This document shows, piece by piece, positions 9,326-9,720 of a stretch of DNA of 64,000 nt. The notes beneath the pieces are model-generated. The model had not been told where the DNA came from. It made no database searches and was given only the letters and a program-made list of their open reading frames with translations. Each line of letters begins with the position of its first letter. Within the stretch, counting starts at the first letter, position 1. The position numbers were made by a program, and so were the translations under genes. The stretch is from Clostridia bacterium (GTDB lineage Bacteria; Bacillota; Clostridia; TANB77; CAG-508), in NCBI GenBank assembly GCA_048355915.1, contig DBGCHZ010000048.1, positions 2,200-66,199 on the forward strand, given 5' to 3'.

Positions 9326-9354
9326 TTGATTTTTAATTTAAATCATTGTAAAAT
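9326..9354 (+). promoter_or_regulatory. Sigma-A-like promoter: TTGATT, 17-nt spacer, TGTAAAAT.
   Basis: TTGATT is at 9326-9331 and TAAAAT at 9349-9354, preceded by TG. It faces the GC-rich intergenic island. Confidence 0.4.
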
Positions 9355-9361
9355 ATTACCA

Positions 9362-9594
9362 ACCTGACGTAAAAAAAGGGTTAGCCCTTTTTAAGGGCGG
9401 AAAGGGGGACTAACATTGAATAACTGCGATTTAATTTTGCACTTTGCTGAAAAGTACATAGCTGAAAAAGAGAAAAACATAATCTTACAACAAAAGTTAG
9501 AACAACAGAAGCATATGCAAATAAACAACAGTGTTAAGACTAATAAAAAGCAATAATTAGTCGATAGAGTAGATTCGTGGTCTACTCTATTTTT
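9362..9594 (+). ncRNA. Candidate ~230-nt sRNA or leaderless transcription unit in a GC-enriched intergenic island.
   Basis: A promoter sits upstream and a hairpin AGAGTAGA / TCTACTCT plus UUUUU terminator at 9566-9594. There is no credible ORF. GC content is clearly above the flanking DNA. Confidence 0.35.
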
Positions 9595-9600
9595 CACAAA

Positions 9601-9633
9601 AAAAATCTGTGTATTCGTGGTACACAGACGACT
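9601..9633 (-). terminator. Intrinsic terminator for the mscS-family gene.
   Basis: Stem CTGTGTA / TACACAG with loop TTCGTGG. On the minus strand it is followed by an 8-nt U-run. Confidence 0.55.
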
Positions 9634-9720
9634 AAATTGAACAAACTGCGATTCAATGTTCATTTATTTTGTAATTAAATACTATCACATTATTTCGAAT
9701 TTGTCAAACCTTTTTAAACT

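Follow-up and report, generated by a model that had tools for sequence, protein, structure and literature searches.

The par locus of pAD1 consists of a toxin mRNA of ~230 nt and a short small RNA (sRNA) transcribed from convergent promoters; the two RNAs first kiss through terminator loops that bear a YUNR motif, a 5' stem-loop lies on the Shine-Dalgarno (SD) sequence, and direct repeats transcribed in opposite directions sequester the initiation site (PMC7472228). Here we describe an element of similar layout in a 64-kb stretch of DNA from a Clostridia bacterium (contig DBGCHZ010000048.1, positions 2,200 to 66,199, assembly GCA_048355915.1; the whole stretch is hereafter called the window). 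We proposed, with a probability of about 0.7, that positions 9263-9710 of the window form an autonomous, par-like two-gene antisense-RNA module for a 46-amino-acid (aa), all-helical, hydrophilic peptide and an sRNA of ~75 nt. A scan of one genome per species recovered 39 homologous loci in 37 species-level metagenome-assembled genomes (MAGs), and altogether >45 homologous loci were collected, from uncultured gut Clostridia; single loci are referred to by L numbers. The features of the module in the window are as follows.

9263-9710, no strand assigned: strain-variable cassette holding the whole two-gene module, delimited by comparison with L002
9326-9354, plus strand: predicted promoter of the peptide mRNA, TTGATT-17-TAAAAT, 9/12 matches in the promoter scan
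about 9361-9596, plus strand: predicted peptide mRNA of ~235 nt, with ends derived from the promoter and terminator
9363-9408, plus strand: fold of the 5' untranslated region (UTR), in which CCU..CGU (9363-9370) pairs with GCG...AGG (9397-9405) and encloses the hairpin at 9373-9392
9371-9392, plus strand: 5' hairpin AAAAAAAGGGTTAGCCCTTTTT
9399-9408, plus strand: SD GGAAAGGGGG, 7 nt ahead of the TTG start
9408-9438, plus strand: direct-repeat copy 1, the sRNA target, spanning the start codon between the 3' side of the SD and codon 7
9416-9556, plus strand: open reading frame (ORF) with a TTG start, 46 aa, MNNCDLILHFAEKYIAEKEKNIILQQKLEQQKHMQINNSVKTNKKQ, from the ORF list
9538-9562, plus strand: hairpin GACUAAU/AUUAGUC over the stop codon, 89% paired and nearly invariant among homologues
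9564-9594, plus strand: mRNA terminator (terminator 1), a 10-bp stem (9564-9573/9581-9590) followed by T5, with loop UUCGUGG at 9574-9580
9629..9598, minus strand: sRNA terminator (terminator 2), stem 9606-9613/9621-9628, loop CCACGAA (plus-strand 9614-9620) and U8 (plus-strand 9598-9605)
9630-9660, minus strand: direct-repeat copy 2, the antisense seed of the sRNA, identified by repeat search, duplex energies and covariation
9672-9598, minus strand: predicted sRNA of ~75 nt, a 5' hairpin exposing AUCGCAG and then the terminator hairpin, with the 5' end derived from the promoter
9707..9679, minus strand: sRNA promoter TTGACA-17-TAGTAT with an extended -10 TG, 10/12 matches plus the TG in the promoter scan

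As in the par RNA I/Fst-RNA II system, a peptide mRNA and a short sRNA have convergent promoters, both of which are predicted to be conserved in 25/25 scored loci. Complementarity over the region where translation starts again stems from direct repeats that are read in opposite directions, and the terminator loops provide another contact, the mRNA loop opening with a YUNR-type UUCG. A predicted intramolecular 5' fold may also touch the SD. The module also resembles the par-like loci of Firmicutes in being chromosomal, intergenic and autonomous. However, par has one shared bidirectional terminator, whereas in the module the two hairpins (9564-9590 and 9606-9628) are separate and differ in their stems; thus, only the 7-nt loops are complementary here, unlike the whole stem-loop in par. 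In addition, the module has one repeat of ~30 nt where par has DRa and DRb, and its sRNA measures ~75 nt compared with ~40 nt. Members of the Fst/Ldr superfamily are peptides of ~30 aa that combine a hydrophobic transmembrane helix (PXXXG, conserved Trp) and a charged tail, whereas the peptide of the module carries no hydrophobic helix, PXXXG or Trp and is not a homologue (no Pfam or NCBIfam match).

Systems of the Bacillus subtilis bsrG/SR4 type and other convergent type I systems share the convergent gene order, with the antitoxin terminator loop engaged in the first contact and an effect of the antitoxin on translation (PMC3834814), but these pairs overlap at their 3' ends as cis-antisense RNAs and encode membrane toxins, whereas the RNAs of the module do not overlap and owe their complementarity to a duplicated sequence. 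In tisB/istR-1, zorO/orzO and shoB/ohsC of E. coli, the antitoxin is also encoded beside its target and pairs through a short duplicated stretch (PMC4147584). However, these pairs are divergent, the target is the 5' UTR or standby site and not the start codon, terminator-loop kissing is absent, and the toxins are hydrophobic. SymE and RalR are longer proteins acting as nucleases; nothing suggests an enzyme here, because the peptide is predicted as a single 40-residue helix. They are the only type I toxins classed as cytosolic and provide a precedent for type I toxins outside the membrane (PMC8309996). In type I systems generally, an antisense RNA pairs with the toxin mRNA and blocks its translation or stability; the pairing is supported here by covariation and energetics, and from its position over the start codon the sRNA would act on translation. 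Par-like logic in nearly every point, separate terminators and a peptide outside Fst/Ldr therefore suggest a par-like type I design with a new peptide family.

Two RNA contacts of a convergent gene pair

The first-pass annotation of this DNA had described an orphan transcription unit flanked by imperfect direct repeats. The repeats are real but longer than was claimed, extending over 31 nt in each copy, and the peptide unit is likewise real but only half of the locus, since a second, convergent unit encodes an antisense sRNA; the minus-strand promoter, the minus-strand terminator and the 9-mer shared by the two terminator loops had been passed over. Because the repeats are direct in the DNA and are read from opposite strands, the mRNA and the sRNA are complementary at them: with two 1-nt indels, sRNA AUUGAAUCGCAGUUUGUUCAAUUUAGUC pairs with mRNA GACUAACAUUGAAUAACUGCGAUUUAAU through 27 base pairs and two single-base bulges. 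The cofolding free-energy change (ddG) in the window was -24 kcal/mol, compared with -5.8 +/- 2.7 kcal/mol for shuffled sRNAs. The second contact involves the 9-mer ATTCGTGGT, which occurs in both terminator loops and has 2 copies in 64 kb, where 0.05 were expected. As the loops are identical on the plus strand (TTCGTGG), the RNA loops are complementary, UUCGUGG in the mRNA against CCACGAA in the sRNA.

Within each locus the two terminator loops always shared the same core, and this core varied between lineages, giving 12 classes. Eight of these are TTCGTGG, TTCGCGG, TTCACGG, TTCACAG, TTCGCAG, CTCGCAG, TTATGG and TTGAGG; GTTGCGA, GTTACG and CTCGCGG came from three more distant subfamilies, and CTACCAC from the alternative cassette of L002. 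Cognate loops shared 5-8 nt compared with a mean of 2.5 for non-cognate loops, and the observed total was reached in 0/100000 permutations. Covariation was scored on 21 aligned rows of concatenated mRNA and sRNA, with the structure derived from the window. The loop-loop helix was 95% paired, with compensatory changes at 5/7 pairs, and the start-site duplex was 88% paired, with compensatory changes at 13/22 pairs; none of 500 shuffles reached the observed values, and sliding the partners by 1-3 columns reduced pairing to 35-45%. When every start region was combined with every sRNA, the duplex energies were block-diagonal by class, with means of -29.8 kcal/mol for cognate and -20.8 kcal/mol for non-cognate duplexes and ~-10 kcal/mol between distant classes. 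Judged from these alignments, covariation is the decisive evidence, with compensatory changes preserving the two contacts between the RNAs. A convergent mRNA/sRNA pair with two co-evolving contacts is thus very well supported.

The individual elements of both units were conserved as well. The peptide-mRNA promoter proposed in the first-pass annotation is present (its TG directly abuts the -10 hexamer, so that it is not a true extended -10), and a promoter-like site occupies the same place at 25 homologous loci, with a mean of 8.4/12. The sRNA promoter has the form TTGACA-17-TGnTATTAT across loci, with TTGACA and the TG in 25/25 scored loci and a mean of 10.8/12, and was nearer to consensus than the mRNA promoter at all 25. 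The sRNA itself was conserved in 38/39 genome loci, and the peptide-mRNA stretch was kept whole in L006-L044. The minimum free energy of the peptide mRNA was -51.6 kcal/mol (z = -3.85 compared with shuffles). The two predicted transcripts converge without overlap, the sRNA stopping a few bases from the mRNA 3' end. The hairpin/U-run terminator seen earlier is terminator 1, whose stem covaries (95% paired, 6/9 pairs changed on both sides); the stem of terminator 2 was 98% paired, with 3/8 pairs changed on both sides, and this terminator (9629..9605) was the only one called by the scan itself. L014, L031 and L038 carry 60-150 nt of extra DNA between the two terminators, with GC-rich hairpins in the L031 insert; since their loops are still matched, the loop contact does not need abutting genes.

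The hairpin noted at the start of the GC-enriched island is also present, and the adjacent G-rich stretch proved to be the SD. The outer stem of the 5' UTR takes in the 5' half of the SD; the extreme 5' end, with consensus AACCUUACG, is predicted to pair with GCG..AAGG of this half in most homologues, where the 5' fold is likewise predicted, and the mean pairing probability of the SD ranged from 0.40 to 0.76 across loci. This outer stem was 92% paired in 21 sequences, and its bases are nearly invariant, hence give no covariation support. In an alternative fold of the window sequence, CCCUUUUU pairs directly with the SD. The predicted folds are thus compatible with masking of the SD by the mRNA 5' end. 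An attenuator or riboswitch reading of the 5' hairpin was ruled out, as no U-run follows the hairpin in most homologues. At the other end of the ORF, the conserved C-terminal peptide motif VKTN (window 9532-9562) is encoded by GUUAAGACUAAU, the invariant 5' arm of the stop-codon hairpin, and at these codons protein and RNA constraints are inseparable. A 90-aa ORF antisense to the peptide gene (9391-9663, minus strand) was rejected because it is not conserved, with a stop after 6 codons in other loci.

From these features, and by analogy for the order and consequences of the contacts, we proposed a mechanism in which the strong, near-consensus promoter would supply the sRNA in excess, the mRNA promoter being moderately strong. 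The sRNA terminator loop would kiss the mRNA terminator loop, probably in a fast contact that comes first, and a pairing of ~27 bp would then form over the start region, from the 3' side of the SD through the UUG to codon 7. This duplex would block ribosome loading and so repress translation, and it may expose the mRNA to double-strand RNases; the peptide would be made only when the sRNA level falls.

The peptide and the explanations weighed

The TTG-initiated frame with its SD, reported earlier as 45 codons, was confirmed with a length of 46 codons. A protein search found 21 homologues with 57-96% identity, mostly of 46 aa, and a profile search of 1.84 billion representative proteins found 59 clusters at 50% identity, all of them small ORFs of the same design; the earlier suggestion of a small-protein gene thus held. 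The consensus reads xxxD(L/V)ILx(L/F)V(D/E)xxIxE(K/R)E(K/Q)N(I/F)xLQ, followed by a Q/E/K-rich tail. In codons 9-33, which lie outside any proposed RNA pairing, the minimum numbers of substitutions by codon position were 25/17/39, and single-nucleotide codon differences comprised 1383 synonymous and 1281 non-synonymous changes. All length changes of the ORF were in frame, giving peptides of 36-47 aa. Going by its conservation in sequence, the ORF is a real, coding and conserved gene. AlphaFold2 predicted a single continuous helix over residues 3-42 (predicted local distance difference test, pLDDT, 86); the peptide is strongly hydrophilic (grand average of hydropathy, GRAVY, -0.98) and has no Pro and no Trp. 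Neither the peptide nor its profile gave a significant match in Pfam, NCBIfam, PHROGs, PADLOC or PDB sequences, and the peptide belongs to no known family.

The reading of this module as a toxin-antitoxin system appears the most likely on the sequence evidence, at somewhat better than even odds. The peptide would then be harmful when made, and the only hints of this are indirect: copies with a dead ORF keep the sRNA, and no intact ORF without an sRNA was found in >45 loci, numbers too small for statistics. Several observations weigh against this reading and against the module as proposed. No segment of the peptide is hydrophobic (the highest 15-residue hydropathy is 0.21, compared with 2.70 for Fst), and membrane peptides make up almost the whole set of known type I toxins (PMC8309996). 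It has no PADLOC or PHROG family, and no relative was found in the viral contigs searched. Sequestration of the SD by the 5' end rests on invariant bases. About four independent lesions on the ORF side stand against no losses of the sRNA only, which does not differ statistically from random decay; as the mRNA gene is the larger target, these events are too few for a significant excess of losses in which the toxin dies first. Finally, the start regions of L041, L042 and L070 mismatch the adjacent sRNA over codons 2-5, with the loops still matching; these loci may be recombinants between specificity classes, or copies under an sRNA encoded elsewhere in the genome. The mismatched codons read ACTAGCGAT in L041/L042 and CTAACAGTGAT in L070.

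The same RNA circuit, with its dedicated sRNA, may instead gate a benign small regulator, for example a coiled-coil partner of a cellular protein, and be no toxin-antitoxin or addiction module. In favour of this, the peptide is hydrophilic, is predicted as a single amphipathic helix and is under purifying selection, and the module is chromosomal, absent from viral contigs and stably syntenic beside MscS in L006, L007 and L028. However, no neighbour or target gene is conserved, co-resident copies have mutually orthogonal RNA specificities, alternative modules were exchanged at one site between near-identical strains, the repressor promoter is near consensus and the target SD is predicted to be partly masked, and the decayed copies observed have retained the sRNA longer than the ORF. 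These points are typical of selfish toxin-antitoxin cassettes and not of housekeeping regulators, and we consider a benign regulator rather unlikely, though the most serious rival of a toxin. A device acting purely at the RNA level, in which the long plus-strand RNA would be a non-coding sponge or decoy for the sRNA and the ORF incidental, would account for the RNA-level constraint on codons 1-7, which are the sRNA target, and on the VKTN codons, which form a hairpin arm. In contrast, the frame is open in at least 35 divergent loci with in-frame indels only, the third-position substitution excess in codons 9-33 falls outside the proposed pairing, the SD is strong and correctly spaced, and the protein-derived profile picks up nothing but small ORFs of equal size, which together make a non-coding device very improbable.

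Even less weight, close to none, goes to a single orphan sRNA or small-protein unit, or to the excision scar that the first-pass annotation had offered, bounded by att-like repeats. Direct repeats and a compositional island do exist, but the scar reading is wrong: the repeats lie inside the module, the start codon and codons 2-7 falling within copy 1, and they co-vary as an intermolecular RNA duplex. The repeat arrangement is the same in every homologous locus across unrelated genomic contexts, and no integrase or tRNA lies near the module. A comparison of related strains had been advised, to see whether the island is present or absent between the repeats; the strain-variable segment is 9263-9710 and not 9439-9629. 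The island was confirmed as GC-enriched relative to the neighbouring spacer (0.313 compared with 0.18-0.20) but not across the window, in which 335-nt windows had a mean GC of 0.253 +/- 0.039 and ~7% equalled its GC richness.

Returning to the toxin-antitoxin reading, we tentatively suggest, as a possibility clearly less likely than not, that the 46-aa peptide is the first of a novel class of type I toxins: soluble single helices, probably forming coiled coils, whose target lies inside the cell and not in the membrane, and which are held in check by a naturally diversified set of at least 12 mutually orthogonal kissing-loop/seed specificities. More speculatively, the helical peptide may bind RNA kissing complexes in the manner of Rop and feed back on its own control.

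Distribution, exchange and decay of the module

A unit of ~400 bp was kept whole in every locus with enough flanking sequence, in the order mRNA promoter, 5' UTR, ORF, stop-codon hairpin, terminator 1, A-run with terminator 2, repeat copy 2 and minus-strand promoter; this conserved layout therefore encodes an RNA of ~75 nt on the opposite strand. The neighbours varied by lineage (MscS/response regulator in the window, hypothetical/DUF5697, LMWPc/Zip-prfA and others), and no neighbour gene conserved across loci was found, which indicates that the module is autonomous. Two genomes carried two copies each (L012 and L035; L010 and L043), with mutually non-matching loops and seeds. No second copy of the peptide motif or the RNA motif was found in the window. 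A generic window scan for neighbouring hairpins with shared loops gave only one other pair, at 35528-35689 (loop TGACTTT), which lies within a 109-aa ORF (35465-35794, plus strand) and was judged a chance occurrence.

The MscS/response-regulator site also holds the module in the related species L006, L007 and L028. In the L002 contig, the flanks were 99.5-99.7% identical to those of the window, and the 448 bp at 9263-9710 were exchanged for a different, inverted module of 379 bp with the same architecture. This alternative module has an anti-SD, an SD, a 44-aa helical ORF and two terminators with matched loops, and a TTGACA promoter serves an sRNA that can pair with the start site of this ORF. 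In promoter and 5' UTR it is similar to the family member L038. Homology of its peptide with the family of the window was not demonstrated (hhalign probability 5%).

Decay was observed in several loci. The 3' half of the ORF and terminator 1 were lost in L028 and L067, and the -10, 5' UTR and SD in L018, with the sRNA kept in each case. In L036 and L037, a single base is missing in the A7 run (GAGAAAAAAACAT) of ORF codons 19-21, which truncates the peptide and could reflect an assembly error, decay or a slippage-prone tract; L036, too, has retained its sRNA. A metagenome scan with the sRNA 5' motif returned 7 loci only, which contributed a single informative case of decay, L067 (metagenome contig OLOF01001849.1, reverse strand, about 1040-1500). 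There, an orphan sRNA gene of the L002 type, with a slightly degenerate promoter and its mRNA partner gone, lies at the same MscS/response-regulator site, and immediately downstream of it is a module of the window type that bears the internal deletion seen in L028; L067 thus has two antisense genes without intact peptide genes.

Genomic setting and significance

The window has a G+C content of 25.3%, and its closest relatives were all MAGs of uncultured gut Clostridia, so that the hosts are all uncultured. The genes around the module are arranged as follows.

12015-13829, minus strand: dnaG
10801-12012, minus strand: sigA
9721-10785, minus strand: MscS-type channel gene, adjoining the spacer
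9155-9720, 566 bp: spacer that carries the two-gene module, between the MscS gene and the response-regulator/histidine-kinase operon
8477-9154 and 6963-8456, minus strand: response-regulator/histidine-kinase operon, on the other side of the spacer

The stop of the MscS gene is at 9721, and no terminator separates this gene from the sRNA promoter; read-through would therefore stop at the sRNA terminator, leaving the whole sRNA sequence within the 3' UTR of the MscS mRNA. A strong promoter-like TAGACA-18-TATAAT (9186-9215, minus strand, 11/12) lies upstream of the response-regulator gene, in a stretch of spacer that does not differ among strains carrying different cassettes. A search of the window against Rfam 15 at the gathering score returned no match besides two tRNAs, and over 8900-10000 at E<=10 the best match was sbrA, at 17 bits compared with a gathering score of 45. 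The two tRNAs, a tandem of tRNA-Gly(GCC) and tRNA-Cys(GCA) at 53957-54177, were the sole Rfam or ARAGORN matches in the window.

With these results, a nondescript spacer from an uncultured lineage of gut Clostridia becomes a defined regulatory module with predictions at the level of base pairs. They also identify the MscS/response-regulator site as a small hotspot where alternative modules are exchanged between nearly identical strains. The family amounts to an exceptionally clean experiment of nature on RNA-RNA specificity, its two separate contacts having co-evolved into 12 or more loop classes and several seed classes, and, because co-resident copies are orthogonal, its parts could serve as orthogonal translational switches. 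If the peptide is toxic, the repertoire of type I toxins would extend past membrane peptides, and such loci would escape any search that selects hydrophobic ORFs beforehand.

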